In this document: piece after piece, positions 1,971 to 18,751 of the stretch
Layout: each line of letters starts with the position of its first letter
How positions within the stretch are numbered: the first letter of the stretch is position 1
NCBI GenBank assembly: GCA_001044195.1
Contig: LFCU01000241.1
Span: 1-20,221, forward strand
Reading direction: 5' to 3'
Length of the DNA stretch: 20,221 nt
From: Candidatus Achromatium palustre
GTDB taxonomy: Bacteria > Pseudomonadota > Gammaproteobacteria > Chromatiales > Chromatiaceae
Notes under the pieces: generated by a model
What the model saw: the letters and a program-made list of their open reading frames with translations, nothing else
What the model was told of the DNA's origin: nothing
Database searches by the model: none
Position numbers and translations under genes: made by a program

Positions 1971-2219
1971 TTAACTATATTCTAAAACCGTATCCCACTG
2001 TTCAGAACTAAGCAAAGAATCTTCAAGATCAGATGAGTCTGTGTCATCGAAAAACACGGATGTATCCTCTCTAATTTCTGCATAAATGACTTTTAATCGT
2101 TCACGCTCAAAATCAAATTCGGATCGTATTGCATCTACATCAACTGGTAGTGTTGCATTGATATTGTTTTTTAACCAATTTTCAATATCTAGGCTGCGTT
2201 TTGTCCATTTATCAATCAT
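1971..2219 (-). CDS. Small acidic protein (82 aa), paralog of the ORF at 3153-3407. It is translationally coupled to the upstream MotB-like gene.
   Basis: Its start overlaps the MotB-like stop by ATGA (2216-2219). The first 30 aa are identical to the paralog, and the acidic S/T-rich tail DDTDSSDLEDSLL is conserved. No TM helix or signal peptide is present. Confidence 0.6.
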   Translation of the reverse strand: MIDKWTKRSLDIENWLKNNINATLPVDVDAIRSEFDFERERLKVIYAEIREDTSVFFDDTDSSDLEDSLLSSEQWDTVLEYS

Positions 2220-3109
2220 TGCGTTGTTCCCAAGGCTTTTTGGGGCTTATTCCTTTTGGTGAAGCGTAGTTCAATGCGTCTTCGAGAAGGGACGTTTTTA
2301 TTTTGGGCACCCTGCAATATGTTATTGTTTGGGGAAATAAGTTGTGATCCTGAGTAAACTCTAAAAACAAGTTGTTTTAAGCGTGGATCATTTGATCTTG
2401 CAAATATATTAAACAATGCTGCCGCAACAGATAAGGCGCGAGCTAGTCCGAGATCTGCATTTGAGCCAATTTGTAGTTGTCTAATCACGTTTGCTGATGT
2501 AGGTCCGAATTGAAAATTTCTTAATTTGGTATCCAGATTGGATGCTCTAGATCTTACTGGTATTCCATCAGTATGCCCTATAACTTCTATTACTTCGATT
2601 GGATAATCTTTAATGATAGCTAATATTTTGGGAACTATGTTTTGTTCTAAACGGCCTTCAAATTCAGGAGATACATTACTACTTCCAGATGTAAAAACAT
2701 AACCTGAAGCTTCTTGTAATGGAAATACTAAGGGCTTATCTGGCCTACGTTTTAATTCACCTTCTAAACCTTTAATGCGAGCTGTGTAATGGGATCGATA
2801 GGTTTGCAGTCTTTCTACTAATCTTTCTAATTCAGCCTCTAAAACTTGAATACGGTTTGCGCTATCTGTACGATTTGTTCTACAAGTTTGCAGTGTTTGT
2901 TCTAAATTTTCAATATTTTGTGAAGAATTTAATTGATGTCGAGTTAATTCTATTCCTAATCTTTTTATCTCTTGTTTTAATTTTTGCAGTATACCAAAAT
3001 GCATGGTATTATCCACCACCCATAAAATCAATACTAACATCAATATTGCTAAAATTAGATCTGTTAATGATGGCCAAAATGACACTTCATCTTTCTGTTT
3101 GTTAAACAT
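2216..3109 (-). CDS. MotB/ZorB-like stator subunit (about 298 aa). It has an N-terminal TM helix with a conserved Asp, an approximately 90-aa coiled-coil linker, and a C-terminal OmpA-like peptidoglycan-binding domain.
   Basis: The TM segment is LTDLILAILMLVLILW, with the D-x12-W spacing seen in MotB. The OmpA motif GHTDG...NxxLGLARALSVAAAL is present. The start was chosen at the internal Met (MFNKQKDEVSFWPS, ATG at 3109) by homology with the N-terminus of the paralog (MFRKYQEEVSFWPS). The 339-aa track ORF from 3235 would overlap the upstream small ORF. Confidence 0.75.
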   Translation of the reverse strand: MFNKQKDEVSFWPSLTDLILAILMLVLILWVVDNTMHFGILQKLKQEIKRLGIELTRHQLNSSQNIENLEQTLQTCRTNRTDSANRIQVLEAELERLVERLQTYRSHYTARIKGLEGELKRRPDKPLVFPLQEASGYVFTSGSSNVSPEFEGRLEQNIVPKILAIIKDYPIEVIEVIGHTDGIPVRSRASNLDTKLRNFQFGPTSANVIRQLQIGSNADLGLARALSVAAALFNIFARSNDPRLKQLVFRVYSGSQLISPNNNILQGAQNKNVPSRRRIELRFTKRNKPQKALGTTQ

Positions 3110-3152
3110 AAACAAGCATCCTGAATTGTTGTACCTAAAAATAGATAGCTTA

Positions 3153-3407
3153 TTACTGTAATTTGTATTCCAGTACCATGTCCCACTGTTCAGGATTAAG
3201 CAAAGAATCTTCAAGATCAGATGAATCGGTATCATCTAAAAAAACAGCCATATCACCTTCAATTGTTACATAAATATTTTCTAAACGTTCTAATTCGGTA
3301 TCAAATACATATCGCATTGCATCTACATCAACTGGTAGTGTTGCATTGATATTGTTTTTTAACCAATTTTCAATATCTAGGCTGCGTTTTGTCCATTTAT
3401 CAATCAT
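3153..3407 (-). CDS. Small acidic protein (84 aa), paralog of 1971-2219. It is translationally coupled to the upstream MotB-like gene.
   Basis: There is an ATGA start/stop overlap with 3404-4045. The N-terminal 30 aa are identical to the paralog, and the acidic tail DDTDSSDLEDSLL is conserved. Confidence 0.6.
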   Translation of the reverse strand: MIDKWTKRSLDIENWLKNNINATLPVDVDAMRYVFDTELERLENIYVTIEGDMAVFLDDTDSSDLEDSLLNPEQWDMVLEYKLQ

Positions 3408-4045
3408 TGCGTTGTTCCCAATACTGTTTGGGGTTTATTCCTTTTGGTGAAGCGTAGTTCAATGCGTCTTCGAGAAGGGACGTTTTTATTTTGGGCACCC
3501 TGCAATATGTTATTGTTTGGGGAAATAAGTTGTGATCCTGAGTAAACTCTAAAAACAAGTTGTTTTAAGCGTGGATCATTTGATCTTGCAAATATATTAA
3601 ACAATGCTGCCGCAACAGATAAGGCGCGGGCTAGTCCAAGATCTGCATTTGAGCCAATTTGTAGTTGTCTAATCACGTTTGCTGATGTAGGTCCGAATTG
3701 AAAATTTCTTAATTTGGTATCCAGATTGGATGCTCTAGATCTTACTGGTATTCCATCAGTATGCCCTATAACTTCTATTACTTCGATTGGATAATCTTTA
3801 ATGATAGCTAATATTTTGGGAACTATGTTTTGTTCTAAACGGCCTTCAAATTCAGGAGATACATTACTACTTCCAGATGTAAAAACATAACCTGAAGCTT
3901 CTTGTAATGGAAATACTAAGGGCTTATCTGGCCGGCGCATTGAAATATCTACTATCCATAAAATCAACACTAATAACAATACTGCTAAAATTAAATCTGT
4001 TAATGAGGGCCAAAATGATACTTCTTCTTGGTATTTACGAAACAT
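3404..4045 (-). CDS. MotB/ZorB-like stator subunit, short form (213 aa). The TM helix is joined directly to the OmpA-like domain, so it lacks the coiled-coil linker of its paralog.
   Basis: The TM segment is LTDLILAVLLLVLILW. The OmpA-like domain is nearly 100 percent identical to that of the paralog. The RRPDKPLVF junction follows immediately after the TM helix. Confidence 0.75.
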   Translation of the reverse strand: MFRKYQEEVSFWPSLTDLILAVLLLVLILWIVDISMRRPDKPLVFPLQEASGYVFTSGSSNVSPEFEGRLEQNIVPKILAIIKDYPIEVIEVIGHTDGIPVRSRASNLDTKLRNFQFGPTSANVIRQLQIGSNADLGLARALSVAAALFNIFARSNDPRLKQLVFRVYSGSQLISPNNNILQGAQNKNVPSRRRIELRFTKRNKPQTVLGTTQ

Positions 4046-4150
4046 AATGCTTTAATGAAATTATTAAGAATCACTATTAAATGATTTAATAGTTTGATTT
4101 ATAAATGTTTGTATATAATATTATATGGTTTATTGTATGAAATGTAGGTA

Positions 4151-5962
4151 CTACCCATTCCACCACTTAGATAATTTTGAACTTGAAACTTTAGTATTAG
4201 TCTGGTTTAGTACGTTAGAGAGATTTGCAATAGATACCTGCAATAACTTCATGTCATCATGGAAATTTTTATCGTATTGATGAGATGGGTTAGCACTACT
4301 TAACAATGAACCAATTTTTGTTTGCAATTCCGAAGCCATAGCATTTGCAAATACCGTTGGTAAATTTTGTAGAAGAGTTTGATGTAATTGTTGTTGAGTT
4401 GATATTGCGGTCTTAATTGCGCTGGAAAAATTGCGAAACTCGGTAATAAGGCTGGTATTATGTTGACTAGAAACGTTTGTACTATTTGCTAATGAATCAA
4501 GCTCCGCTTGTAACTTAGAAGTTATGGCATCTGCAATTATCATTGGTAGATCTTCTAACAGATTTTTAGTGTTTGCGGCTTCTGTCGTGACTGTATTTGA
4601 AAAATTGCTAAATTCAGTATTAAAGTTCGTTAGTTCCGTTTTCCATTGTACTGTAATGCTGTTTAACAATTTGCCATATTTATCAATGTTGCTAGTTGTT
4701 ACAGCTAAACTATCAATAACAGTTTGCAAGCTTTTAACTGAATTGGTTGCTTCCGTAGCAGTATCTAAGACAGATTTGGTTAAATTAGCTGTCTCCTGGT
4801 GCAAGATAAACAATTCTTTGTTTTGGGCAGTTGAAAGCTCTTGCATTTTTACTACAGCATCTTGTAATTGGGCATAACGCTGTTCTGCTGGACTAACCGC
4901 CTGATATAGTTTATCCATAGCTTGCAAAAAAGGGGCATTTGAGGCAACACTTTTATCGAAACGATTAGCTGCGGTATTAAGAGTATTTGCCGCTTGCCCT
5001 ATACTCTGTATAATTGGTGACAAAGCTGCTGCAAATTGGGTCATAGCATCTGTTGTATTTTGGGCTGATTTATTAATGGCTGCTATGGCACTATTGTTGG
5101 TATTATTGATGTTCTTAGCAGAAGTGTCAAAAGCATCAGACAATAGTTCACTTCCTATTGAAATTGTATCCATAAATTCAGTTATAGATTTATTAGTATT
5201 TGCAGCTAATTGGTTAATACCCGTTATGGCACTATCGCTTGTATTATTGATGTTTGTAGTATAAGTATCAAAGGCTTCAGATATTTCTTGGCTTTTTGTT
5301 GAAATAGTATCACCAAGTTTAGAGATAGATTCTTCGGTTTTTTCTGATTGAGTTTCTATTATTTTAATTTTATTGCTATCATTCCATGGAATTAAAACTT
5401 TGCTGGCAAAATTTACAAAATTTCGTGCAGCTATATTGTATGTAGGATCAAGCAATCCGAAGCGAATAGCCTGTAATATCAGCGTTGCAATGACTCCAAA
5501 GATGCTAGGCCAAAACGCACTAGTAAGTGCCTCTTGTAATTGTTGATAGGTATCTTGATTTATTCCCTCTGGAACAGCATAATGTAACGAAAATAAGGTA
5601 CCAGCGATACCACATAGCAACACTACTGAAATGGCATATCTTCTAATACCAATAAGAATCTTAATCCATAACTCATTTGGCTCAATAAGATCAATAGCCG
5701 CTTCTGGTGCATGATCAGTTGCCAAAATTCGATTAAATGCTGGTCTTAATGGGTGATTTTTTCCTATTTTGCGATCTAGCCAAGCTCGCATATTAGTAGG
5801 ATCAGTATTTCGTAAATCATATTCAAGATCTGCAATAACTTTGGACTGAGTATACCAAAACCGGATCTCCAAAATAAAACCAATAATAGCTGAAATACTT
5901 AAGATAGCTATTATTCCTATAAATATTATAGAAGCTGTAGACATGTTTAAAAGTATAGACAT
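4151..5962 (-). CDS. MotA/ExbB/TolQ-like membrane protein with a roughly 420-aa low-complexity helical C-terminal tail (603 aa). It looks like a ZorA-like motor subunit.
   Basis: It has three predicted TM helices in ExbB-like topology: residues 10-32, then around 100-125 (LLCGIAGTLFSL), then around 150-175 (IFGVIATLILQAIRFGL). The tail from about residue 190 to 603 is rich in N/T/S/A/Q, contains internal imperfect repeats (for example SxAFDTxxxNINNT), and has no TM. The gene sits directly upstream of two MotB-like genes and directly downstream of the kinase, with a 27-bp gap. Confidence 0.7.
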   Translation of the reverse strand: MSILLNMSTASIIFIGIIAILSISAIIGFILEIRFWYTQSKVIADLEYDLRNTDPTNMRAWLDRKIGKNHPLRPAFNRILATDHAPEAAIDLIEPNELWIKILIGIRRYAISVVLLCGIAGTLFSLHYAVPEGINQDTYQQLQEALTSAFWPSIFGVIATLILQAIRFGLLDPTYNIAARNFVNFASKVLIPWNDSNKIKIIETQSEKTEESISKLGDTISTKSQEISEAFDTYTTNINNTSDSAITGINQLAANTNKSITEFMDTISIGSELLSDAFDTSAKNINNTNNSAIAAINKSAQNTTDAMTQFAAALSPIIQSIGQAANTLNTAANRFDKSVASNAPFLQAMDKLYQAVSPAEQRYAQLQDAVVKMQELSTAQNKELFILHQETANLTKSVLDTATEATNSVKSLQTVIDSLAVTTSNIDKYGKLLNSITVQWKTELTNFNTEFSNFSNTVTTEAANTKNLLEDLPMIIADAITSKLQAELDSLANSTNVSSQHNTSLITEFRNFSSAIKTAISTQQQLHQTLLQNLPTVFANAMASELQTKIGSLLSSANPSHQYDKNFHDDMKLLQVSIANLSNVLNQTNTKVSSSKLSKWWNG

Positions 5963-5989: not shown

Positions 5990-7354
5990 TTATATCGAAT
6001 TTGTCATTGGTTCAATAGATACTCGCCCGTGTGCAAAGTCAAACGCCCTTACTCCTACAAACCGAAATGCGTGATTACGTTTACATCGTAGTTGCCTCCC
6101 AGAAGCAAGATGCACAATCCAGGTATCATTGCTTAAATTTTTGAGAGTCATCCCACGTTCTGGTGTCTCTTTTATTTCGGCCATTGGACGCTTAAATTGA
6201 AATTCCTGATTATCCAAATGGTGCTCATAGAGTTTGCGTCCATGAGTCGCTAAAATTTTAGTACCATTAGAAAATTTTAAATACCAACGTTTATTTGGAT
6301 GCTTGGTATCGCAAAATAGACATGTACAATTCTGATCGGAGATAAAAAAACGTTGGTGACAATTAGAGCATTCCGCCATACATTCCAACGCTTGCCAAAA
6401 TTCTCTAGCCCAAGTTGCCGCTGAATGGCGTTTTGTAGGATTTTTAAGCCCAATGGTGAATACTTGTTGAAATCTAGTTTGCATGGACTTTGGCAAATGA
6501 GCAAATGGAATACCATTAGTAGTAAAACGATTCCTACTATCTGTAGGATGTTCAGTAAAGATAGCACTAGTACCAAGTCCCTCATCTTCAGTCATGTAAT
6601 CCAAATTAAAATTCGGATCAACATCGCCTATAAATGGATGCCTAAACATGACTAAATAAAACAGTAGTACGGCCAAACTATGTCGATCCGTTTCCGCAGA
6701 TGGATGTGGATGTTGTGCTGTTATAAGCTCTGGTGCTCTAAAACCAGGAGTTCCAGCTACTTTTACTGGCAGATAGTTACTATTCCCACATGCAAGATTA
6801 TCGCAATCAATAAGACATATACTACCATCAGAGGTATTAAAAAATACATTACCCAAAGATAAATCGCAATGAGTCATCCCATGGCTATGAATCATCCGTA
6901 ACGCTTGCGAAAGGTAGAAGCCTGCTAATAAAAAATGATGATATTTATCATAATTGCTAAGTACAGAACGCAGGGCTGCACTTATAAATGGATTGGGTTG
7001 GTCATAAGGATCTGTAAGTAATGAATCGTGATTCAGTGGTTTACCTATCGCCAATTCCATTAGTACGCCAAATTCATTAGCAGAACTATATATAGCTCTG
7101 GGAAAGCAAACTTGGGCTTGGGGTAAAGTCCTGGCAATTTCTTTGGCAACATCGATGATTGTTTCTAGGCGTTCTTGCTGTTGATATAGTTCTGCTTGAG
7201 CGGGTAGTTTTTTAAATAATTTAAGGGCCATTTTATGGCTATCATGAGTGCGCTGGACTTGCCAGACATCAGCCTGTTGTCCAGAGCCTAGTGCAGCTTT
7301 ATACTTATATTCTTCGCCGTTAGTTGTAGTAAAGTTGGAGTTTTCTGTAGGCAT
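5990..7354 (-). CDS. Hanks-type Ser/Thr protein kinase (454 aa) with a C-terminal Cys-rich zinc-ribbon and an additional uncharacterised roughly 100-aa domain
   Basis: Kinase motifs are present: a G-loop LGSGQQADVW, the lysine in ALKLF, the catalytic loop HCDLSLGNV, a DFG-like DCD, and GTPGFRAPE. Cys clusters include CMAECSNCH and CTCLFCDTKH. Confidence 0.85.
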   Translation of the reverse strand: MPTENSNFTTTNGEEYKYKAALGSGQQADVWQVQRTHDSHKMALKLFKKLPAQAELYQQQERLETIIDVAKEIARTLPQAQVCFPRAIYSSANEFGVLMELAIGKPLNHDSLLTDPYDQPNPFISAALRSVLSNYDKYHHFLLAGFYLSQALRMIHSHGMTHCDLSLGNVFFNTSDGSICLIDCDNLACGNSNYLPVKVAGTPGFRAPELITAQHPHPSAETDRHSLAVLLFYLVMFRHPFIGDVDPNFNLDYMTEDEGLGTSAIFTEHPTDSRNRFTTNGIPFAHLPKSMQTRFQQVFTIGLKNPTKRHSAATWAREFWQALECMAECSNCHQRFFISDQNCTCLFCDTKHPNKRWYLKFSNGTKILATHGRKLYEHHLDNQEFQFKRPMAEIKETPERGMTLKNLSNDTWIVHLASGRQLRCKRNHAFRFVGVRAFDFAHGRVSIEPMTNSI

Positions 7355-7366
7355 GATATTAATAGG

Positions 7367-8272
7367 TTACAGATTGTAAAATACAGCTACCAGTGTTTTA
7401 TCATCATCAGAAAATTTATGTTCTTCCCAGTAATTACAATATGCTGTGGCATATTCTTCTAAAGCTACTGGATCATCTAAGCATTGTTTTAATTTTGGCC
7501 ATATAGCACTAAAATATAAGTTGGGATCGCCAATACTTTCACTCAGCCCATCGGTCATAAGGCAGAAACCTACACTATCTTTGTATTCAGTTATTCCAGG
7601 ACTTGACTCTGCAAAACCACGTTGCCATTCAGTGTTGGTTAACGGTCGAACTTCATTGACAAAGCCTTCACGTATATTTTCAGTTAAAAGCTGTGCTGCA
7701 ACTTTATCATCTGGTCTTGAAGAGATTTTATATATAGCACCATCTCCAACGATTGCTGCCCAGTAACCTTCAGAGTTTAAATATAGTAGTAATGCTGTTG
7801 TGGCGTATTCTGTTAAGTAGCCATCTACTAATGTTTGTGAAGATGTTTTTATATCCTGGGTATCATCTTTATTTTTATGACCAGTTTTATTTTGCTCGTT
7901 ATCTTCTTGGCATAATATTACAAACTTATCTCTAGCGTCAGTAAAGTAGTCTTTCAATTGATTGCTATTAAGAATACTTGTGCTTGCACCACTAAATACT
8001 TGACCCAGGGCAGTACAAGCACATTCAGCTCCTTTACGAGAGCGTGATCTGGTACTTACTCCATCTGCTACGGTTAGAGTCAGTGATTTAATATCATCTA
8101 CTTTTGTAGGTGTAGGCCAGTAAGCAGTAAAATCTTGGCATTCTGTACTTTGATCCACATGAGCTTTACCACGCCAAGAAAACGTTACAATTGCTATACT
8201 TTTGCCAGATATGTTGTAACGTTTAATTTTTGGAGGTATGCTAAAATGCTCAGAATTTAAATAAGCAGTCAT
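7367..8272 (-). CDS. PP2C-family Ser/Thr phosphatase (301 aa), the TerY-P phosphatase component
   Basis: Metal-binding Asp/Gly motifs are present: VADGVS, VGDGAIY and LMTDGLSE. It lies 8 bp after the vWA gene and 12 bp before the kinase gene. Confidence 0.8.
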   Translation of the reverse strand: MTAYLNSEHFSIPPKIKRYNISGKSIAIVTFSWRGKAHVDQSTECQDFTAYWPTPTKVDDIKSLTLTVADGVSTRSRSRKGAECACTALGQVFSGASTSILNSNQLKDYFTDARDKFVILCQEDNEQNKTGHKNKDDTQDIKTSSQTLVDGYLTEYATTALLLYLNSEGYWAAIVGDGAIYKISSRPDDKVAAQLLTENIREGFVNEVRPLTNTEWQRGFAESSPGITEYKDSVGFCLMTDGLSESIGDPNLYFSAIWPKLKQCLDDPVALEEYATAYCNYWEEHKFSDDDKTLVAVFYNL

Positions 8273-8279
8273 AGTGCTT

Positions 8280-8954
8280 TTAATTAACTAACTGAGTTCC
8301 AGGAATCTCACTTATGGGTCGTTTTTCTGAAATTTCTACTGTCAATGTCCTTAAATTTTTAAAAAAGCCACTGATAGTAGCTTGATCTTTCAGTCTAACA
8401 ATGTGCGATTTTTCTCTACCCTTATGGTAAAAGGCAGTTAAAACCGAATCGTTTATATCATCACCGGCTCCAGCAATTACTCTAATTCCAGCGACTCTAC
8501 CTGATGGTCTAGTGCCTATAAGAGGATTTTCATTCATAAGCTGTAATTGATCTTTCCAAGCTTGTTCGGAGCAATTAGGGTTACCATCGGTGATAAATAC
8601 AAATAATGGTTCTTTGCCTTTTTTTAATTCGTTTTTATTACGTTCTACTAATGCTAATACTTCTGCTAAACCTGCATCAAGGTTTGTGTATCCTGCTCCC
8701 ACTTCAATTTGAGGAATATCTATAGAGCCAATAGGTTGATGTTCAATGATAGTCTCAGCAATATCGCTAAAAGTTATCACCGATATAAAGACAGAATCAC
8801 GGGTATCTTCATTGCTTTGCAATTCTTCGATGTAATCACGAATGCCATTATTAGCCTGTTGTATACCAACTGGCTCCATACTATAAGATACGTCTACTAA
8901 CAATATAATGGGTATGGGTTTACGTGCAGTTGCACCATCTGGTATTTCAATCAT
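8280..8954 (-). CDS. TerY-like von Willebrand factor A domain protein (224 aa) with a MIDAS motif. It is the first gene of the operon.
   Basis: The MIDAS motif DxSxS is present as ILLVDVSYSM, with downstream FITDG. An AGGAA ribosome-binding site lies about 10 nt upstream of the ATG. An 876-bp AT-rich non-coding region lies upstream. Confidence 0.85.
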   Translation of the reverse strand: MIEIPDGATARKPIPIILLVDVSYSMEPVGIQQANNGIRDYIEELQSNEDTRDSVFISVITFSDIAETIIEHQPIGSIDIPQIEVGAGYTNLDAGLAEVLALVERNKNELKKGKEPLFVFITDGNPNCSEQAWKDQLQLMNENPLIGTRPSGRVAGIRVIAGAGDDINDSVLTAFYHKGREKSHIVRLKDQATISGFFKNLRTLTVEISEKRPISEIPGTQLVN

Positions 8955-9011
8955 GCTTTATTTATTCCTAATATATTACGACAAATAGTGGATTTCATTT
9001 TGTTTCTACTT

Positions 9012-9041
9012 ATTCTACATATTAATAGGCACAAAGATCAA
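9012..9041 (-). promoter_or_regulatory. Candidate sigma70-type promoter for the TerY-P/ZorAB-like operon (TTGATC-N18-TAGAAT on the minus strand)
   Basis: A -35-like TTGATC (reverse complement at 9036-9041) and a -10-like TAGAAT (reverse complement at 9012-9017) are separated by an 18-nt spacer, about 60 nt upstream of the vWA start codon. This was found by eye only. Confidence 0.25.
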
Positions 9042-9101
9042 CTACTTTCCAATTGCACTATAAAGGTCAAATTGTATTTGACACTATCTATATCAATTTT
9101 A

Positions 9102-9130
9102 GGGCATCCTTCATTTCTCAGTGTACAATT
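9102..9130 (-). repeat. Copy of the dispersed bipartite X/Y motif (reverse complement: AATTGTACACTGAG-AAATGAAGGATGCC)
   Basis: Its X unit matches AAATGAAGGATGCC at 9539-9552, and its organisation matches 1881-1907 and 15189-15225. Confidence 0.5.
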
Positions 9131-9400
9131 TATAGATTGGTTATATTTTTAGCATTCTTTATCAATACCTCGATGCTCAAAAGTTAGAAAACGCTTATAT
9201 ACTTAGATATGTTGACATTACATATTTTAATTAGATTTTTACTTGATTAGCTCTACTCAATATTGTATACGTTCTATCCTGTAGAAGCCTTATAGCTTAA
9301 GTAATTAAAATATTACCTAATACTAACTTTTGAACATCAAGAATGCTGATGCGAATATCCTATTTCCAATTCAAAAAGTGGGCATCATTCACCAACACCC

Positions 9401-9433
9401 AAAAGTAGTTTACACTTTAAGAAGGATGACGAC
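9401..9433 (-). repeat. Y-unit (AAAGTGTAAACTACTTT, reverse complement) plus a degenerate X-like unit (GAAGGATGAC). It forms a 17-bp inverted repeat with 9556-9572.
   Basis: AAAGTAGTTTACACTTT at 9401-9417 is the exact reverse complement of AAAGTGTAAACTACTTT at 9556-9572. Confidence 0.5.
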
Positions 9434-9520
9434 AAGTAAAATAAATTTTTTCTTAACTTGAAACATCTGATATATAAACACTTTTTAGAAATAAAAAATA
9501 TTTTCAATTTTTAATGTCCT

Positions 9521-9597
9521 TAAAAAGTGTTAACCGACAAATGAAGGATGCCAAAAAGTGTAAACTACTTTGTAGACGGAAATAAAGAATGCCACGA
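9521..9597 (+). repeat. Cluster of X/Y motif units: a Y-like unit, X (CAAATGAAGGATGCC), Y (AAAAAGTGTAAACTACTTTG), then an X-like unit (AAATAAAGAATGCC)
   Basis: The units were read directly from the sequence. They sit in the 876-bp intergenic region between the vWA gene and the second SiaB-like gene. Confidence 0.5.
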
Positions 9598-9720
9598 TTA
9601 AAATTGGATATGATTTCTTCCCCAATTATAACTTTATGCTTATTAAACAGGGAGAGGTTTTTAAATAATATCTAATGTTACAAATTTAATTTGGAAAAGT
9701 AGAATTTCTTAACAGAACAA

Positions 9721-9786
9721 TATAATGCGCATTAAACTTGATATGCACCAACGGGATGATATCACATTACTTGGTGTACGTATTTA
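9721..9786 (+). pseudogene. Relic 3' end of a PP2C/SpoIIE phosphatase gene (encodes MRIKLDMHQRDDITLLGVRI-stop). It is an imperfect direct repeat of 1771-1847.
   Basis: It is about 85 percent nucleotide identical to the last roughly 25 codons of the phosphatase gene at 855-1847 (IRIQLEMHQQDELQRDDITLLGVRV-stop). It carries a 15-nt in-frame deletion flanked by CCAAC microhomology. The final 35 nt are 31/35 identical. Confidence 0.6.
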
Positions 9787-9831
9787 AATATAGATAAAGA
9801 TTACCATAAACTTAAAATAGAGACAAAAATT

Positions 9832-10386
9832 ATGGATAATTTCGATGTTTTCGAATTTTATCAATTTATGCAAAGACAAAATGTGATTCTATCCTTCAAG
9901 GGAGAAATGTCACAGCAAATACTGGTTAATATTGGTGATTTATTGAAAGAAAAATTAGCATCTGAAGATACGGAAAAACAGGTCACTAAAAAAGTATTCT
10001 TCATTTTCGTTGAATTGGCGCAAAATATTCACCGTTATTCCGCTGATCGAGGCATTGAAGATAAAAAACGAGCAGGTACAGGTGTGTTATTTGTTAAAGA
10101 ATCTGCCAATTATTTCACAATTTTTGCTGGCAATAGAGTTGCTCCTCTGGAAGCAAAAGTGACCACCGAGCAATGTTTGGCAATTAGCCGATTAACGCCA
10201 AATGAACTGAAGCTATATTATAAAGAACAACTAAAACAACCGCGTGAAGATGAAACCTCTGGTGCTGCTGGTCTTGGACTTATTAGTATCGTCCGTAAAG
10301 CCGAAAACCCAATTGTTGCGTATACTATAGACATTGATACCAATGAAACTTTTTTGGTACTATCAGTTCAAGTGAATAAGGAATAA
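9832..10386 (+). CDS. SiaB/DUF6272-like histidine-kinase-like ATPase (partner-switch Ser/Thr kinase, 184 aa)
   Basis: The sequence has a GHKL-type N-box-like stretch (ELAQNIHRY), a G1-like stretch (TGVLFV) and a G2-box (GAAGLGLI). It is followed 4 nt later by a SiaC-like gene. Confidence 0.8.
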   Translation: MDNFDVFEFYQFMQRQNVILSFKGEMSQQILVNIGDLLKEKLASEDTEKQVTKKVFFIFVELAQNIHRYSADRGIEDKKRAGTGVLFVKESANYFTIFAGNRVAPLEAKVTTEQCLAISRLTPNELKLYYKEQLKQPREDETSGAAGLGLISIVRKAENPIVAYTIDIDTNETFLVLSVQVNKE

Positions 10387-10390
10387 ACCA

Positions 10391-10780
10391 ATGCAAGATC
10401 TAAAGATTGTTGGCACAAAAGATACATTAACCGTAAATTTTATAGTAGAATCTGGTATCTTGACATTGAAAGGAGCCTCTTATCCAGAAAATCCTGTTAA
10501 TTTTTTTGATCCGCTCTATACATGGATTACAACATATACACAAGAAATCCATAATACATTAACCGTGAATATGACGATTAATTATGTGAATACTAGTTCA
10601 TCTAAATGCTTACTTGATTTTTTAGAATTACTGGAAAATTATCATAATTCAGGCGGAAAGATTACGCTTAATTGGTACTATGAAGAGGATGATGAAGACA
10701 TGTTAGAGTGTGGTGAAGAATTGTGCGAAGATCTAAAGCTGCCCTACTCAATGATTCCAATTGTTGGGAATCCTGAATAA
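10391..10780 (+). CDS. SiaC-like DUF1987 partner-switch phospho-protein (129 aa)
   Basis: It has the LKGASYPEN motif and an acidic C-terminus, and is paralogous to 341-730. Confidence 0.8.
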   Translation: MQDLKIVGTKDTLTVNFIVESGILTLKGASYPENPVNFFDPLYTWITTYTQEIHNTLTVNMTINYVNTSSSKCLLDFLELLENYHNSGGKITLNWYYEEDDEDMLECGEELCEDLKLPYSMIPIVGNPE

Positions 10781-11244: not shown

Positions 11245-14200
11245 TTATTGCTTTATAAGTTTTTCGAGTTTTTCTACCTCATTCTTTGCGTTAGTATGTC
11301 CCTGAGCAGCAGCCTTTTGGTACCACTTTAGAGCCTCTTTGTAATCTTGAGTGACTCCGTCGCCATTGTCATACATAACGCCAATATTGTATTGCGCATC
11401 AGCATCCCCTTGAGCAGCAGCCTTTTGATACCACTTTAGAGCCTCTTTGTAATCTTGAGGTACTCCTTGGCCATTGTCATACATAAATCCAATCTGTAAT
11501 TGTGCATTAGCATTCCCTCTAGCAGCGGCCTTTTGAAACCACTTTAGAGCTTCTTTGTAATCTTGAGATACGCCTTGGCCATTTGCATACATAAATCCAA
11601 TATAAATTTGAGCATCAGTATGTCCCTGAGCAGCAGCCTTTTGATACCACTTTAGAGCCTCTTTGTAGCTTTGATGGACTCCTTGACCATTGTAATACAT
11701 AAGACCAATATTGTATTGCGCACCAACATTCCCTTGAGCAGCGGCCTTGCGATACCAATTTAGAGCCTTTTTATAATCTTTAGGCACTCCTTGTCCATTT
11801 GCATACATAACACCAATATTGTATTGCGCATACGCATCACCTTGAGCAGCAGCTTTTTGAAACCATTTTAATGCTTGATTGTAATCTTGAGGTATACCCT
11901 TGCCACTAAGGTATATATCACCTATCCCATTTTGTGCATCGGCATTACCTTGATATGCGGCTTTATTCCACCACTCTAATGCATCCGCGTAGTTTTGATA
12001 TATTCCTTGGCCACTGTAGTACATAAAACCAATATTGTATTGCGCATCAGCATTCCCTTGAGCAGCGGCCTTGTGATACCACTTTAGTGCCTCTTTATAG
12101 TCTTGAGGTACGCCTTGACCGTTGTGATACATAACACCAATATTGTATTGCGCATTAACATACCCTTGAGCAGCGGCCTTTTGATACCACTTTAGAGCCT
12201 CTTTGTAATTTTGAGGTACTCCTTGGCCATTGTAATACATAAGACCAATATTGGATTGCGCACCAACATTCCCTTGAGCAGCAGCCTTTTGATACCACTT
12301 TAGAGCCTCTTTGTAATTTTGAGGTACTCCTTTACCAATGTTATACAGGGCACCAATATTGCTTTGTGCTTTAGCATTCCCTTGAGCAGCAGCCTTTTGG
12401 TACCACTTTAGAGCCTCTTTGTAATCTTGAGATACGCCTTGGCCATTTGCATACATAACACCTATCCCATTTTGTGCATCGGCATTACCTTGAGCAGCGG
12501 CCTTGTGATACCACTTTAGTGCCTCTTTATAGTCTTGAGGTACGCCTTGACCGTTGTGATACATAACACCAATATTGTATTGCGCATTAACATACCCTTG
12601 AGCAGCGGCCTTTTGATACCACTTTAGAGCCTCTTTGTAATTTTGAGGTACTCCTTGGCCATTGTAATACATAAGACCAATATTGGATTGCGCACCAACA
12701 TTCCCTTGAGCAGCGGCCTTGCTCCACAATTTGAATGCCTCTTTGTAGCTTTGAGGAACACCTTTACCCAAAGCGTACATCAATCCAATATTGCTTTGTG
12801 CTGTAGCATTCCCTTGAGCAGCGGCCTTGCGATACCAATTTAGAGCCTCTTTGTAATCTTGAGATACGCCTTGGCCATTTGCATACATAAATCCAATCTG
12901 TAATTGTACATTAGCATTCCCTTGAGCAACAGCCTTTTTATACCACTTTAGAGCCTCTTTGTAATTTTGAGGTACACCTTGGCCATTGTAATACAGCCCA
13001 CCAATATTGTATTGCGCACCAACATGCCCTTGAGCAGCAGCCTTTTGGTACCACTTTAGAGCCTCTTTGTAATTTTGAGGTACTCCTTGGCCATTGTGGT
13101 ACATCCAACCAATATTGTTTTGAGCAGATTTAAGTCCTTGAGCAGCAGCTTTGTGGAACCATTTCAAGGCTTTTTTGTAATTTTGAGTTACATTTTTGCC
13201 AAGATAATAAGTAATGCCAATATTAAATTGCGCATTAGCATATCCTTGAGCTGCTGCTTTATGAAACCATTTTAGAGCCTTCTTAGGATCTTTAGGTATA
13301 CCTTTACCATCACGATACATAACACCAATATTGTGTTGCGCCTCAACATGACCTTGAGCAGCAGCTTTGCGATACCAATTTAGAGCTTCTTTATAATCTT
13401 TAGATACACCTTGGCCATGGTGGTACATCCAGCCAACACCGACTTGCGCAATAGCATCACCTTGAGCAGCAGCTTTGTGGAACCATTTCAAGGCTTTTTT
13501 GTAATTTTGAGGTACACCTTGGCCATTGTAATACAGGCTACCAATATTGTATTGCGCACCAACATCTCCTTGAGCTGCTGCTTTATGAAACCATCTAAGA
13601 GCTTCTTTGTAGTCTTTGGTTACGCCTTCACCATTGCGGTACACCAGACCAATATTGTTTTGTGCTCTAGCATTTCCTTGGGCTGCTGCTTTGTGATACC
13701 ATTTAAGAGCTTCTTTGTAATCTTTGGCTACGCCTTCACCTGAACTATAAGCAATGCCGACAGCATTTTGTCCGTTACTATTATTTTGCGCAGCAGACAG
13801 ACGAAACCATTTCAATGCCTCTTTAGAATTCTGGGCTACGCCTAGCCCCATAGCATATATTTTACCAAGCTCATATTGAGCTTCAGCATCACCGTGAGCT
13901 GCTGCTTTGCGATATTTTTTTAGAGCCGCTGCTTGATCTTGGGGAGAACTTGAAGAATTATCCTCATGTTTCGGAGCCTCTAACTTTGCTAGTTTTAATT
14001 CCATACTCGCTGTTGTGGCCTTAAACTGTTGCTGCATCTGTTGCATACGTGATTCTAACTGCTGACGCTGTTGGCGTTCGGCAGCTAGTTGAGATTGTAA
14101 TCTAGCAACTTGCGGATTTTCTACAACTGGTGGGCTGGAGAGATACAGGGCATCTTCTAAAGAGGAAGAATCCCAAGGGATTTGAAAGCCTCTGGTCTCT

Positions 14201-15090
14201 TGCTTTACATCCTTACGTACCTTACGCAGAACAAACTGAATATCCCCTGGAGTATTGATATATTTGAGGAGATGCTTGGTAAAAGTACCATTACGACCAT
14301 GACCATCCTCAGCTACACTATTAGGACTCGTTGCATAGACTAATAGAGTATCCGATGGAGTATTCATCCTTGCCAAACCTGAACGCATTCTCCGGCCCTT
14401 GACACCACGGCTTAAAAATGGATTATTACGACAGGCATCTAAAAAAACTATTTTAGTTTTGGCCGCTTTAATCTTAATCAATAATTGACTGGCACGAATA
14501 GCTTGGCGTTCGATTTGATCTTCACGCTTAAAATACGCATCTACTGGTAATAGATAATTTTCGCCCTTGACCTGAACACCATGTCCTGAATAATAGACTA
14601 AAGCTATATCACCAGCCTGTAATTGCAGACCAAAATTATGGATCGCATCATCCATCTCTAACAACTTGGCATCTTTGAGCAATGCAACTTTAAAACCTAA
14701 ACCTTGCAAGGCATTGCTCATATCCTCGGCATCGTTAGCTGGATTTAATAATGGCGGTAAATCACTCGGCATGGCACTGTAGGCTGAATTACCGATTACC
14801 AGAGCCATACGGCGACTGGTAACTCTTCCTAATGCTTTAGTTTGGGTAGGTTTGGTAACAGGAGGCTTATTGGCTATAGCACCAGAATCACCAGTATTTC
14901 TGGTAGCTATTTTGGTAGCTATTGGAGTAGATTGTTTAGGCTTGCTAGCAACTATAGTACTAGGTTTTTTAGTATCTTTAGTAAACAGATTATTGTTGCA
15001 GCCAGTAATCAATAGAGTTAGGCCGATGCTACATAGCCATAATGGCCATGCAGACAACTGGAGAGTTTTAATTAGTTGTTTTAGAAACAT
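11245..15090 (-). CDS. Large lipoprotein (1281 aa) with four parts: signal peptide and lipobox, a caspase-like peptidase C14 domain, a coiled-coil, and about 25 Sel1-like repeats
   Basis: The N-terminus MFLKQ...LLITGCNNN ends in an LITGC lipobox. The caspase His/Cys dyad is present in YYSGHGVQ and VFLDACRNNPF. A Q/R-rich coiled-coil occupies about residues 320-390. A 36-aa Sel1 consensus (AQYNIGVMYxNGQGVPQDYKEALKWYQKAAAQGN) is repeated through to the C-terminus. Confidence 0.85.
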   Translation of the reverse strand: MFLKQLIKTLQLSAWPLWLCSIGLTLLITGCNNNLFTKDTKKPSTIVASKPKQSTPIATKIATRNTGDSGAIANKPPVTKPTQTKALGRVTSRRMALVIGNSAYSAMPSDLPPLLNPANDAEDMSNALQGLGFKVALLKDAKLLEMDDAIHNFGLQLQAGDIALVYYSGHGVQVKGENYLLPVDAYFKREDQIERQAIRASQLLIKIKAAKTKIVFLDACRNNPFLSRGVKGRRMRSGLARMNTPSDTLLVYATSPNSVAEDGHGRNGTFTKHLLKYINTPGDIQFVLRKVRKDVKQETRGFQIPWDSSSLEDALYLSSPPVVENPQVARLQSQLAAERQQRQQLESRMQQMQQQFKATTASMELKLAKLEAPKHEDNSSSSPQDQAAALKKYRKAAAHGDAEAQYELGKIYAMGLGVAQNSKEALKWFRLSAAQNNSNGQNAVGIAYSSGEGVAKDYKEALKWYHKAAAQGNARAQNNIGLVYRNGEGVTKDYKEALRWFHKAAAQGDVGAQYNIGSLYYNGQGVPQNYKKALKWFHKAAAQGDAIAQVGVGWMYHHGQGVSKDYKEALNWYRKAAAQGHVEAQHNIGVMYRDGKGIPKDPKKALKWFHKAAAQGYANAQFNIGITYYLGKNVTQNYKKALKWFHKAAAQGLKSAQNNIGWMYHNGQGVPQNYKEALKWYQKAAAQGHVGAQYNIGGLYYNGQGVPQNYKEALKWYKKAVAQGNANVQLQIGFMYANGQGVSQDYKEALNWYRKAAAQGNATAQSNIGLMYALGKGVPQSYKEAFKLWSKAAAQGNVGAQSNIGLMYYNGQGVPQNYKEALKWYQKAAAQGYVNAQYNIGVMYHNGQGVPQDYKEALKWYHKAAAQGNADAQNGIGVMYANGQGVSQDYKEALKWYQKAAAQGNAKAQSNIGALYNIGKGVPQNYKEALKWYQKAAAQGNVGAQSNIGLMYYNGQGVPQNYKEALKWYQKAAAQGYVNAQYNIGVMYHNGQGVPQDYKEALKWYHKAAAQGNADAQYNIGFMYYSGQGIYQNYADALEWWNKAAYQGNADAQNGIGDIYLSGKGIPQDYNQALKWFQKAAAQGDAYAQYNIGVMYANGQGVPKDYKKALNWYRKAAAQGNVGAQYNIGLMYYNGQGVHQSYKEALKWYQKAAAQGHTDAQIYIGFMYANGQGVSQDYKEALKWFQKAAARGNANAQLQIGFMYDNGQGVPQDYKEALKWYQKAAAQGDADAQYNIGVMYDNGDGVTQDYKEALKWYQKAAAQGHTNAKNEVEKLEKLIKQ
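11270..13910. repeat. 108-bp tandem DNA repeat of about 24 units encoding the Sel1 repeats, with higher-order near-identical 432-bp (4-unit) duplications
   Basis: For example, 12049-12290 is near-identical to 12481-12722 (offset 432). The protein shows a 4-repeat block duplicated almost verbatim (NVGAQSNIGLMYYNGQGVPQNYKEALKWYQKAAAQGYVNAQYNIGVMYHNGQGVPQDYKEALKWYHKAAAQGNADAQ occurs twice). Confidence 0.85.
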
Positions 15091-15398: not shown

Positions 15399-15794
15399 TT
15401 AGACAGGTTCCACAACCACTAATTCAATATCGCCATTCTCTAGCACTTTTTCTTCCTCAATAATCAACCCCTGTTCTGCTACCTGTTTTTTGATTGCCAA
15501 ATGTGCGTAAACACGATTTACATCCTGCATAAATTCTTCTTCCTGAATTTTAGTAGTTCGTTTAATACCCCACCAATCAGTACAAACGGCGTAAGTGTTA
15601 TCTTCTTGACGTTGAAAACCAATGCTATATCTCCCACCAGTGTCGACTACAATCTGGCCGAGTTCAGTATTGTCTTGATAGCCATAGATTGGTAAATCTT
15701 CACCAGTCTGAAATTCATATTCTAATTGACGTAAAGTCTCCTCTAATAGTATTTGGTCGGTAATTTGGGTTTTAACTTGAGAAAAATGAGACAT
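15399..15794 (-). CDS. DUF1257/Ycf35-like small protein (132 aa from the internal start MSHFSQVKTQI...)
   Basis: From memory, the N-terminus MSHFSxxKTQIxD resembles the Ycf35/DUF1257 family found in cyanobacteria and plastids. An AGGAA ribosome-binding site lies about 9 nt upstream of the ATG at 15794. The longer 153-aa ORF from 15860 lacks a ribosome-binding site and adds a non-conserved extension. Confidence 0.55.
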   Translation of the reverse strand: MSHFSQVKTQITDQILLEETLRQLEYEFQTGEDLPIYGYQDNTELGQIVVDTGGRYSIGFQRQEDNTYAVCTDWWGIKRTTKIQEEEFMQDVNRVYAHLAIKKQVAEQGLIIEEEKVLENGDIELVVVEPV

Positions 15795-15929
15795 ATTAGG
15801 GTTCCTAAAAAATAATTTAAATGTATTATACTCGACTATCCAGTTTTTTTGACTTGACAAATTTGTAGGGCGGGAGAACGAAGTGATCCAGCCTTCTATA
15901 TAAGTTTACTATTTTGCAATAATGTTGGA

Positions 15930-16045: not shown

Positions 16046-18562
16046 ATGGAAGACCGAAACTCCAAACGCGACCTGGTGCTAGCCCCAGGTGAATACGCTT
16101 ATATGCAAGATGTCACTAAAGGCGTGATCAAAACTTACACCGGTCCTACAGTGATTAATCCCACCGCTCAAGAACGTGCAGTCTCTTTTAATGAAGCTAG
16201 CAAACGTTTTGAACCTTGTCAAATTGAGCAAGCCGTACAACGATGCGCCATTGCACCTGAAGGCTATTATATTATCCTCAAAAATCCTGCGGTCAAAGGA
16301 GATTTTCCACCCTTTGGCGGAGTATTTCCATCTCCAGATCTAGACGTAGGTAAAAAGATCAATCTCACAGGTCCCTGCATGTTTTCCCTGTGGCCAGGCC
16401 AGATCTTTAAGCTAGTCCAAGGTCATCATTTACGCTCCAATCAGTATCTATTAGTAAGAGTATATAATGAAGACGAAGCCAGGCGTAACTGGACCAAAGC
16501 CATTGTAAAACCAGCAACCACAGATGGCCAAGCTGAAACCACGGATATTATGAGCGATGCCCCACGTGATCTCAACGTGGGCAGCCTCTTTATCATCAAA
16601 GGTACTGATGTCTCATTCTACATCCCACCAACTGGAGTCGGAGTGGTACCAGATGAACATGGCCAATACGTGCGCGATGCCCTTACCTTAGAACGATTAG
16701 AATACTGTATTCTAGTAGATCAAAATGGCAAAAAACGCTTTGAACGAGGCCCTCAAGTAGTCTTCCCTGAACCTACAGAATCATTTATTACCCGTGATAG
16801 CCAACGCAAATACAGAGCTTTAGAACTAAATGAGATTCAGGGTTTACACATCAAAGTCATCGCCCCCTATACTGAAGGCGAACGCCAATACAAAGAAGGT
16901 AATGAAATATTTATCACTGGTAAAGAAACGGCTATCTATTTTCCGCGTGAAGAGCACTCATTGGTACGCTATGATGGTAGAGATAAACACTTTGCCGTAG
17001 CCATTCCCTCTGGAGAAGCTCGCTATGTGATGAATCGCAAGACAGGAGCTATCCACATGGTACCTGGTCCGGCCATGTTATTACCTAATCCTGTAGATGA
17101 GGTGATAGTACGCCGTGTGCTATCTGAAAAAGAATGTAGCACCTGGTATCCAAGCAGCAAAGAGGCTCTAGCCTATAATCGTAGTCTCTACCAATTAGCT
17201 TCTGTAACCCCCACCACCCGCTCTGGTGCTGTATCTGAAGGCGATGTCCAACGCAGCCGCCGTCGTGCTGGAAAAAATGCACCACAGGCATCAGTAGCAA
17301 TGGAAGCTAGTGCAGTAAGCCGTGACACTAACACTATGGCTGGAGATATAGTAGAACGTGGTTCTACATTTACCCAGCCCCGTACTCTAATTTTTAATAC
17401 CAAATTTGAAGGAGTACCCAATGTTAATGTGTGGGTAGGCTATGCCATAATGATTGTCAATAAGCAGGGACAGAGACGTGTTGAACAAGGCCCTAAAAAT
17501 ATCTTGCTAGAATATGATGAAACTTTACAAGCGATTTCATTATCTCGAGGTCGTCCCAAATCTACATCACAATGTTTAGAAACAGTATATTTACGAGTTT
17601 TAAATAATCAAATTAGTGATCGCTGCACAGTAGACACCAGCGATTATGTACGGGTACGTTTAGAATATGCTTTGCGAGTAAACTTTGTAGGTGAACCCAA
17701 TCGTTGGTTTGAAGTTGAAAATTATGTGCAATTTTTGTGTGATCATGTTCGAGCGATACTTAAAGGTGCCATCAAGCATTATAATATCGAAACGCTATTA
17801 GCTGGTGCCTTTGAAATTCTCCACGATATCGTCTTAGGGCCATTAGCAGATGGGAAGCGTACTGGTATGACCTTTGCTGAGAATGGAATGCAGGTAACTG
17901 ACATTGAAGTACTTGAAGTTGCTATTGAGGACAAAGCTACTTCAAATCTGTTAGATAAAGCGCAACAGGAAGTAGTTGAAAACAATGTCGCCTTAGCACG
18001 TGCTAATAGAGAACTTGAAGTGACTCGGCAACGTGAAGCCATTGCACGGCAGATGTTAACTGCTAAAGCTGAAACTTCACAACATCAAAATCAGTTAGCC
18101 ATAAATGTGGTGCAAGAGCAGCTAGAGCTACAGCTAGCTAAAATCCGTTCAGAAATCAATACTCACACAGAAACCGAACAGGCTCATAAAGCAAAACAAC
18201 AAATGTTGGATGTAGAACATCAGGCTAAAATCGAACGTGATAAACAAAGTGCTGATCTACAGCATACCATAGCGAGTCGTAAGCAGGAGTTGCAGCTTGA
18301 GACTCTTAAAGCCGAGGTAGCAAGTGCAGTACAGAGATTTGAGGCTGCCCAAAGTGGATTCTCCGAAGCTCTCTTGGCATTGAATAATCATGAAACCCTA
18401 ATTAAGATTGCCGAGGCTATGAGTGTGCAAAATTTTGTCGGTGGTCGTAGTTTAACTGACGTATTAGATAAGATCTTTACTGATACTCCACTACAGTCTC
18501 TATTAGAAACCGTAAAAAACAAGGCTAGTTTGCCAAATTCTATCACTAAGTCCAGCTCGTAG
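16046..18562 (+). CDS. Major vault protein (MVP) homolog, 838 aa. It has N-terminal MVP repeat domains, a shoulder domain and a C-terminal coiled-coil cap-helix region.
   Basis: The N-terminal repeats match the eukaryotic MVP repeat signature (LAPGEYAYMQDVTKGVIKTYTGP...ERAV; APEGYYIILKNPAV). The shoulder-domain region SLSRGRPKSTSQCLETVYLRV...YVRVRLEYALRVNF closely parallels human MVP [21 protein letters not shown]...HARLQLQLAYNWHF. The last roughly 200 aa are a Q/E/A-rich coiled-coil. Confidence 0.85.
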   Translation: MEDRNSKRDLVLAPGEYAYMQDVTKGVIKTYTGPTVINPTAQERAVSFNEASKRFEPCQIEQAVQRCAIAPEGYYIILKNPAVKGDFPPFGGVFPSPDLDVGKKINLTGPCMFSLWPGQIFKLVQGHHLRSNQYLLVRVYNEDEARRNWTKAIVKPATTDGQAETTDIMSDAPRDLNVGSLFIIKGTDVSFYIPPTGVGVVPDEHGQYVRDALTLERLEYCILVDQNGKKRFERGPQVVFPEPTESFITRDSQRKYRALELNEIQGLHIKVIAPYTEGERQYKEGNEIFITGKETAIYFPREEHSLVRYDGRDKHFAVAIPSGEARYVMNRKTGAIHMVPGPAMLLPNPVDEVIVRRVLSEKECSTWYPSSKEALAYNRSLYQLASVTPTTRSGAVSEGDVQRSRRRAGKNAPQASVAMEASAVSRDTNTMAGDIVERGSTFTQPRTLIFNTKFEGVPNVNVWVGYAIMIVNKQGQRRVEQGPKNILLEYDETLQAISLSRGRPKSTSQCLETVYLRVLNNQISDRCTVDTSDYVRVRLEYALRVNFVGEPNRWFEVENYVQFLCDHVRAILKGAIKHYNIETLLAGAFEILHDIVLGPLADGKRTGMTFAENGMQVTDIEVLEVAIEDKATSNLLDKAQQEVVENNVALARANRELEVTRQREAIARQMLTAKAETSQHQNQLAINVVQEQLELQLAKIRSEINTHTETEQAHKAKQQMLDVEHQAKIERDKQSADLQHTIASRKQELQLETLKAEVASAVQRFEAAQSGFSEALLALNNHETLIKIAEAMSVQNFVGGRSLTDVLDKIFTDTPLQSLLETVKNKASLPNSITKSSS

Positions 18563-18582
18563 GGTGGCAAGGTTATGGCCCA

Positions 18583-18621: not shown

Positions 18622-18751
18622 GTAGATATCAACATGAAATGTAATTGAGACAATTTAGATGATATGTTTAAAATGCGGCTCATCAATCAATTAAAAATCA
18701 CTAACCCTTGGGCAACAACCCGCAAATAAGTAGCACACCCTACCTTTATTT

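Follow-up and report, generated by a model that had tools for sequence, protein, structure and literature searches.

A tandem duplication of a ZorB/MotB-like gene and its small partner, with signs of gene conversion, in a predicted ZorAB-like operon of Candidatus Achromatium palustre

The operon and its duplicated cassette

The window analysed here is a 20,221-bp stretch of DNA from Candidatus Achromatium palustre (contig LFCU01000241.1), to whose positions coordinates refer unless another locus is named. It contains an operon, encoded entirely on the minus strand, that is predicted to specify a ZorAB-like membrane motor together with phospho-signalling proteins, and in which the gene for motor subunit B and the small gene behind it occur twice in tandem. 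The order of transcription is vWA (von Willebrand factor A protein), PP2C, Ser/Thr kinase, A, B-short, small_up, B-long and small_dn. The first gene (8280-8954) encodes a TerY-like vWA protein of 224 amino acids (Pfam VWA, E = 5.9e-10), whose translation contains a DxSxS MIDAS motif (DVSYS). It is followed by genes for a PP2C-type phosphatase of 301 amino acids (7367-8272; Pfam PP2C_2, E = 8.5e-24) and a 454-residue Ser/Thr kinase (5990-7354; Pfam Pkinase, E = 1.3e-17), in the translation of which the zinc-ribbon motif CSNCHQRFFISDQNCTCLFCDTKH (CxxC...CxxC) lies after the kinase domain. The three predicted products conform to the TerY-P triad as defined by Anantharaman et al. 2012 (see PMC10542128), in which a vWA protein and a PP2C accompany a Ser/Thr kinase whose C-terminus carries a zinc ribbon. 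No PADLOC model matched the vWA or PP2C protein. The fourth gene (4151-5962) encodes the predicted ZorA-like A subunit of 603 amino acids, in which a membrane domain of the MotA/ExbB type at the N-terminus precedes ∼400 residues of helical tail.

Behind A lie two cassettes, each consisting of a B gene and a small gene. In the upstream cassette the ZorB/MotB-like protein B-short (3404-4045; 213 amino acids) has its transmembrane (TM) helix joined to the peptidoglycan-binding domain without a linker, and the following gene, small_up (3153-3407), encodes an acidic three-helix protein of 84 amino acids. A 43-nt spacer (3110-3152), in which AGGA lies ∼10 nt before the next ATG, leads to the downstream cassette. 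This comprises B-long (2216-3109; 297 amino acids), which is equivalent to B-short plus an 84-residue helical linker (codons 37-120, at 2750-3001), and small_dn (1971-2219; 82 amino acids). The mechanical open reading frame (ORF) of B-long extends to 3235; the ATG at 3109 is taken as the start on the basis of homology to every relative and of the NCBI/JGI gene call P0156. As the initial annotation of this DNA had noted, each MotB-like gene is ATGA-coupled to its own small ORF, the B stop codon overlapping the small-ORF start at 3404-3407 and 2216-2219. Both B ORFs and both small ORFs are intact. A terminator scan detected none on the minus strand inside the array or between the cassettes, and promoter-like sites were not more numerous than in shuffled sequences. 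The gap between A and B-short (4046-4150) is 105 nt long and very AT-rich, with no convincing promoter; in relatives the two genes are ∼10-20 nt apart or overlap. A minus-strand homopolymer of 11 C at ∼1945-1955, ∼20 nt past the small_dn stop codon, may be a slippage-prone tract or merely mark the end of the operon.

The tandem, mosaic duplication of this cassette is real, and its earlier description proved factually correct throughout. The reported offset of exactly 1188 nt holds across 1971-2745. Within this range the block 2128-2745, put at more than 95% identity to 3316-3933, differs from it at 6 of 618 nt (2234, 2235, 2238, 2246, 2441 and 2450), an identity of 99.0%. The block, hereafter the tract, lies at 3316-3933 in the upstream copy and at 2128-2745 in the downstream copy, and spans the sequence for the peptidoglycan-binding domain as well as codons 1-30 of the small ORF. 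At the same offset, identity drops to 60-80% over 1971-2127. The B N-termini (3002-3109 and 3938-4045) align at an offset of 936, with 20 differences in 109 nt, and are covered by a repeat family of 111 nt with 82% identity. The segment of ∼250 bp originally placed at 2746-2996, and found in the downstream copy only, measures 252 bp (84 codons, 2750-3001), the same location within a few bases. Over the whole alignment, 72 of 887 aligned sites differ. Their distribution is highly uneven: the 6 differences in 618 nt of core compare with 42 in 154 (Fisher p = 1e-25) and 20 in 109 (p = 7e-13) in the flanks, and the longest identical run, 295 nt, compares with a maximum of 141 nt in 20,000 permutations. 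At the protein level the periplasmic domains of the two B proteins are identical at 175 of 177 positions and their N-termini at 27 of 37, while the small proteins are identical at 64 of 81, including all of residues 1-30.

It is conceivable that the array is an assembly artefact, made when two alleles of a one-cassette locus from different strains, or a repeat resolved wrongly, were strung together. The sequence comes from one draft contig of 20,221 bp, no second assembly of the organism turned up in the collections searched, and the near-identical repeat of 618 bp exceeds short reads, so that the copy number could be wrong, even underestimated. However, a unique stretch of ∼570 bp (3315 down to 2746) joins the 3' half of small_up, the 43-nt spacer, and the N-terminus and linker of B-long. 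Two single-cassette alleles would not hold that join, and there is no internal repeat at this point from which a chimera could be made. The NCBI and JGI gene calls also agree, and an artefact is considered very improbable.

Gene conversion, related loci and the loss of the linker

Synonymous divergence (dS) between the two copies varies sharply along the cassette, from 0.017 in the periplasmic domain and 0 in codons 1-30 of the small ORF to 0.51 in codons 1-36 of B and 0.99 in codons 31-81 of the small ORF. Selection on the protein cannot create this 30- to 60-fold contrast, which indicates that the duplication is old and that the 618-bp tract has been homogenised recently by gene conversion, the process that had been proposed from the mosaic pattern. 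The ratio of nonsynonymous to synonymous divergence (dN/dS) is 0.30 in codons 1-36 of B and 0.22 in codons 31-81 of the small ORF. Values of 0.2-0.3 outside the tract show that both copies have been maintained, and by this measure both are under purifying selection. The additional proposal of the initial annotation, that differences between the copies are selectively maintained, is not upheld, since these ratios in unconverted sequence reflect ordinary purifying, not diversifying, selection, and a tract boundary at the indel is expected anyway. Six nucleotides separate the left tract end from the indel, and the two adjacent Arg codons already differ synonymously (CGC CGG versus CGT AGG); heterology at the indel would halt the heteroduplex at about this point. 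Four differences within 13 nt (2234-2246) break up the tract, which fits either patchy mismatch repair or two separate events. Covariation of helix 2 of the small protein with the cytoplasmic N-terminus of B is inseparable from the geometry of the tract, and is therefore not claimed. Three of the four clustered differences fall in a small hairpin that lies shortly before the start of each small ORF; considered as a candidate feature, this hairpin was rejected, its stability not exceeding that of shuffled sequences (z = 0.08 and -0.42).

The occurrence of the cassette elsewhere was assessed in 165 related loci, in which all ORFs were scanned with iterated profiles of the six operon proteins. 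The best relatives, from scans of genomes, metagenomes and viruses, are 48-50% identical. Comparison of homologous loci, a check that the initial annotation had called for, found two cassettes only in this window. Every other locus has a single B gene save for those with frameshift-split genes (L007, L041 and L055), one with a distant fragment of 62 amino acids (L112), and L134, in which a TerY-P triad is flanked by two whole A-B pairs that have diverged to 48% identity in B and 40% in A. Within this set of 165 loci, only the lineage of the window thus has the tandem cassette. L134 (metagenome contig CAJHXH010000180.1, pairs at 8837-10648 and 18222-19865) represents a different route to two stator variants: one of its B proteins has a coiled-coil linker (257 amino acids) and the other a short Pro-rich linker (216 amino acids), both with Glu at the site of the pore Asp.

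Verrucomicrobia metagenome-assembled genomes (L001-L009 and L087) carry the six-gene operon with one cassette, and in L001-L009 the vWA gene occupies the same operon position as in the window. On L086, a Logan contig whose GC content equals that of the window (37.7%), a single cassette of B and the small gene follows A and the remains of a kinase gene, with no second B in the 284 bp after the small gene. Within L086 1-2990 the kinase is truncated to its C-terminal 226 amino acids and an ORF of 563 amino acids lies upstream on the opposite strand, so that the operon may be disrupted there. More broadly, the A-B pair occurs together with a TerY-P triad in ∼25 of the 165 loci, including loci named as Blastocatellia, Desulfobacterales, Caldora, Rivularia, Stigonema and Iningainema, and in the remainder the pair has other neighbours. 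L019-L084, many of them cyanobacterial or from Thiotrichales, carry the pair without the triad and without the small protein, and in Nostocales it adjoins a divergently oriented kinase-like gene of ∼340 amino acids. From these differing neighbours it follows that the A-B module is combined with several different sets of partners. Viral contigs yielded no relative, a result that is uninformative on phage protection.

The AlphaFold2 (AF2) model of B-long (predicted local distance difference test, pLDDT, 79) displays helices at residues 12-78 and 84-121, followed by an α/β domain. The linker is thus modelled as an antiparallel helical hairpin with ∼40 residues per arm and the loop NRTDS, rather than as a simple extended form of the coiled-coil linker first noted; a Foldseek search with the whole B-long model returned designed helical hairpins only. 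The end of the linker, RIKGLEGELKRRPDKP, is homologous to the linker end of relatives, and the rest of the linkers is mostly unalignable. The last linker helix reads RIKGLEGEL-KRRPDKP in B-long, HIKGLEDEL-KRRPDKP in P0002 and RIKELEDEL-KRRPDKP in other relatives; B-short keeps RRPDKP only, and L086 keeps NGL-KNRPDKP with different boundaries. As this end is shared with relatives, the linker is most probably ancestral in B-long and was lost from B-short through an in-frame deletion of 84 codons. Of the two possibilities left by the initial annotation, that one copy had lost the linker or the other gained it, gain is not favoured. In the B tree the two paralogs of the window group together as sisters; roughly similar distances separate the window, L086 and the Verrucomicrobia clade from one another, and L003 branches outside all three. 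The B proteins of L003 and the Verrucomicrobia have long linkers and that of L086 has none, and the loss in L086 appears to be independent of that in B-short. A gain of the linker with L086 as sister, considered on account of its short B and identical GC content, was abandoned in view of the equidistance in the trees and of the linker-end motif, which reverses the polarity. No donor of the linker was apparent, as it displayed no similarity elsewhere in the window or among the 8283 proteins and ORFs compared. The upstream cassette is also the derived one with respect to its small protein: scored with a family profile from which the window sequences had been left out, small_up reaches 65.7 bits and small_dn 75.9. 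The two B N-termini have equal profile scores.

Among 149 distinct B proteins, 70 are of 190-230 amino acids, 38 of 230-270 and 32 longer, the family extending from ∼200 to ∼360 amino acids, and the short, linker-less forms are the commonest. The principal variable of this B family is thus the length of its linker, in support of the idea that this length is a tuned parameter. The data also bear on the alternative that the second cassette is simply redundant, a neutral or dosage copy whose similarity is due to gene conversion and whose linker deletion was non-adaptive, with length drifting freely. The hypervariable length and sequence of the linker in homologs, the prevalence of linker-less forms and the independent absence of a linker in L086 are in keeping with redundancy, and direct repeats of 618 bp with 99% identity make expansion or collapse of the array by recombination easy. 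By contrast, dS values of 0.5-1.0 combined with dN/dS values of 0.2-0.3 imply that both copies have long been kept intact, and all four ORFs retain their integrity and their ATGA coupling. Redundancy is thus a rather improbable explanation of the array.

The motor subunits and the small partner protein

The MotB-like identity originally assigned to the B genes is borne out by a match to ZorB1, by profile alignment to ZorB and by the MotB/PomB/ZorB fold of the periplasmic domain. The B proteins score 22-23 bits against Pfam OmpA (23.2 for B-short), under the cut-off of 27.2 bits, and the PADLOC ZorB1 model matches B-short with E = 2.9e-8. A profile of 22 homologs aligns FWPSLTDL with FWISYADL of E. 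coli ZorB, such that Asp17 corresponds to ZorB Asp26; this residue is present in both paralogs and almost invariant across the B family. Both proteins therefore display the features of B-type subunits: a single N-terminal TM helix with a pore Asp, a C-terminal OmpA-like peptidoglycan-binding domain, and an adjacent MotA/ExbB-type A gene.

The A gene is located directly upstream of B in ∼70 loci. The A protein has no match in Pfam, and the PADLOC ZorA models match its tail only, and weakly (E = 2e-5). A profile built from 25 homologs, however, matches the ZorA structures 8vvn_C (1.6e-13) and 8qyd_A (1.9e-9), and also the tail-less ZorA construct 8qyh_A, here over the membrane domain only (E = 1.7e-8). 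The alignment consensus contains the motifs GL.GTF.G and AF..SL.G, typical of MotA/ExbB/TolQ. In combination with the evidence for B, these profile and motif data lead to the prediction that A and B are a ZorAB-like pair of the 5:2-motor type. The helical tail of A contains a 141-nt tandem repeat (5033-5314; 70% identical), and the gene has a second repeat pair of 47 nt (4410-4456 and 4584-4630); the tail seems to have been enlarged by internal duplication.

The small proteins have no match in Pfam, NCBIfam, PADLOC or PHROGs, and a Foldseek comparison of the small-protein model with the PDB also produced none. A word-based search with one of them recovered the two paralogs only, and homologs emerged through synteny and profiles. 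An ORF of 78-92 amino acids lies directly after B in L001-L009 and L086. It overlaps the B gene by 4 nt (ATGA-type) throughout, apart from L003, whose small gene begins 8 nt past the B stop codon. A profile search of 5.8 billion proteins identified 20 clusters at 90% identity, and a HMMER scan of 1.84 billion representatives, clustered at 50% identity, returned 19 hits, of which ∼16 are genuine members of ∼80 amino acids. Conserved positions are W5, E13, W15, F56, D67, L69-L70 and Q74-W75. The window proteins share with this unnamed family their length of ∼80 amino acids, the three helices, the conserved residues and the location directly after B. The claim that the small partners have no described homolog thus stands in so far as they belong to no described family; homologs do exist, always at the same operon position. 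On the basis of these searches, the small partner is a new, very narrowly distributed family. Its AF2 model (pLDDT 78; predicted template modelling score, pTM, 0.35) consists of three helices and an acidic Ser/Thr-rich loop. As a signal peptide and TM segment are absent, the protein is presumably cytoplasmic. A role as adaptor or kinase substrate is a guess prompted by the acidic Ser/Thr-rich loop, and the translational coupling suggests that the protein is made in proportion to B.

Several other genes of the window deserve mention. Flanking the operon are two pairs of genes for DUF6272 and SiaC proteins (85-327 with 341-730, and 9832-10386 with 10391-10780), the DUF6272 ORF of the first pair matching only the C-terminal half of the model, and a SpoIIE/PP2C phosphatase gene at 855-1847. 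These look like partner-switching phospho-signalling modules, duplicated on either side of the TerY-P/ZorAB-like genes. Further away, 11245-15090 on the minus strand encodes a protein of 1281 amino acids with a caspase (Peptidase_C14) domain and, behind it, 24 Sel1 repeats. A plus-strand gene at 16046-18562 encodes an 838-residue bacterial protein that matches the shoulder and Vault_3 repeat domains of the major vault protein, and is adjoined by a DUF1257 gene at 15399-15860 on the minus strand.

Two B isoforms and comparison with known systems

We favour, with moderate confidence, an old, lineage-specific duplication followed by loss of the linker and later conversion, which has left two B isoforms that share one A as envelope sensors. 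The sequences indicate that the last two genes of a six-gene operon were duplicated in tandem in this lineage only. The upstream copy then most probably lost the 84-residue linker by in-frame deletion, its small partner diverging faster, and more recent gene conversion homogenised 618 bp and halted at the indel. As the pore Asp17, a near-identical TM helix and the same dimerising domain have been kept, both B paralogs should fit a single A pentamer. By analogy with the structures of ZorAB and MotAB, either B could act as a B2 dimer in a 5:2 ion-driven unit with that pentamer.

The likely consequences of the linker can be framed by what has been proposed for characterized motors. In E. coli ZorAB the peptidoglycan-binding domains sit linkerless on the TM helices and are thought to be unable to reach the cell wall before the envelope has been deformed by infection. 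MotB, for its part, possesses a plug as well as a long linker, and it has been proposed that the length of the linker decides whether the wall is reached (PMC11946911, PMC11890865). B-short would, by analogy, have the geometry of ZorB, with its domain on the membrane and the wall reached only if the envelope is pushed in. In B-long the modelled periplasmic hairpin of ∼6 nm may change reach or gating, whether by extending the reach, by serving as a plug or probe, or by forming a four-helix bundle in a homodimer. Two kinds of sensor of envelope perturbation could result, with heterodimers as a potential third. Their signal would travel along the long tail of A to the vWA/PP2C/kinase switch, and each B would be co-translated with its own cytoplasmic small partner.

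A related possibility is that the two proteins are obligate partners, each motor containing one B-long and one B-short, such that conversion preserves a shared interface and the dimer combines a hairpin probe with a plain anchor. The periplasmic domains, identical at 175 of 177 residues, would provide the same dimer interface, Asp17 is kept in both paralogs, and both genes belong to the same operon, uninterrupted by any minus-strand terminator. There is also a precedent among 5:2 motors, as TPH-vWA genes occur mostly in heterologous pairs (PMC12204202). Every relative examined, however, has one B per A and thus works as a homodimer, identical domains suit homodimers equally well, and gene conversion requires no selective explanation. 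An obligate heterodimer is therefore regarded as unlikely.

Several points weigh against the interpretation of the two B proteins as isoforms that sense the envelope through one A. The array is known from one assembly, and the assignment to families draws on weak sequence scores, that for OmpA being below the cut-off and the PADLOC ZorA match being confined to the tail. The hairpin derives from a monomeric AF2 model, and a parallel dimeric coiled coil would alter the reach of B-long. The link between the small protein and B consists of translational coupling and synteny. Finally, a single B gene suffices in relatives, and the system therefore does not need two isoforms.

A broader proposal, which we advance only tentatively and consider doubtful, is that the operon specifies an undescribed Zorya-like system, in which an envelope-sensing rotary unit of the ZorAB type signals to a TerY-P switch and not to nucleases, with an additional partner of ∼80 amino acids, and in which the two B isoforms set two mechanical thresholds or triggers. 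The combination of ZorAB-like and TerY-P components would carry the Zorya principle beyond nuclease effectors into phospho-signalling, and the locus would gain in interest if it proves to be a Zorya-like sensor coupled in this way. The B pair, near-identical both around the pore and in the domain that binds the wall, differs by an 84-residue linker and amounts to an isogenic pair for the idea, proposed in current Zorya models, that ZorB, for want of a linker, keeps the motor off as long as the envelope is not deformed. If the proposal is true, the two thresholds would constitute a natural test of whether the membrane-to-wall distance gates ZorB.

The closest known counterpart is the ZorAB pair of Zorya types I and II (8qyd, 8vvn/8vvi). 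Similarities are an A subunit in which a MotA/ExbB-type membrane domain precedes a very long helical cytoplasmic tail, a B subunit with one TM helix, a pore Asp at the position of ZorB Asp26 and a MotB-type peptidoglycan-binding domain, the adjacent A and B genes, and the lack of a linker in B-short as in ZorB. In contrast to Zorya, a TerY-P triad lies upstream, the operon has no PADLOC match to ZorC/ZorD, ZorE or ZorF/ZorG, the ZorA and ZorB models match weakly, there is an extra partner of ∼80 amino acids, B is encoded twice, once with an 84-residue linker, and the system is not known to act against phage. Since the Zorya effectors are absent, the module falls outside Zorya types I-III; judged by its gene content, it is predicted to work like ZorAB without being a member of those types. 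The three upstream genes are the same, in the same order and in one operon, as those of the TerY-P triad, from which the locus differs in that they are here joined to a ZorAB-like motor. A full-text search, confined to one literature collection, found no paper linking ZorAB or Zorya with TerY, PP2C or vWA-kinase modules.

Comparison with MotAB, PomAB and MotPS shows that B-long resembles MotB in the long segment between TM helix and periplasmic domain, which has an amphipathic start where the MotB plug lies. The window, however, offers no flagellar context, the tail of A is of the Zorya type, and the linker is modelled as a helical hairpin and not as flexible. AglRQS (AglQ/AglS) and ExbB-ExbD1-ExbD2 each combine one A-type gene with two paralogous B-type genes, as does the locus described here. 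The same arrangement is seen in the TolQ-like systems with paired TPH-vWA proteins (PMC12204202). The paralogs of these two-B motors are old and divergent throughout, whereas the B genes of the window are in-paralogs with a periplasmic domain rendered identical by conversion, a single linker indel and a small partner each. Duplicated B-type subunits are thus known in the superfamily, and the form displayed here, that of converted in-paralogs distinguished by a linker indel and accompanied by small partners, is new.

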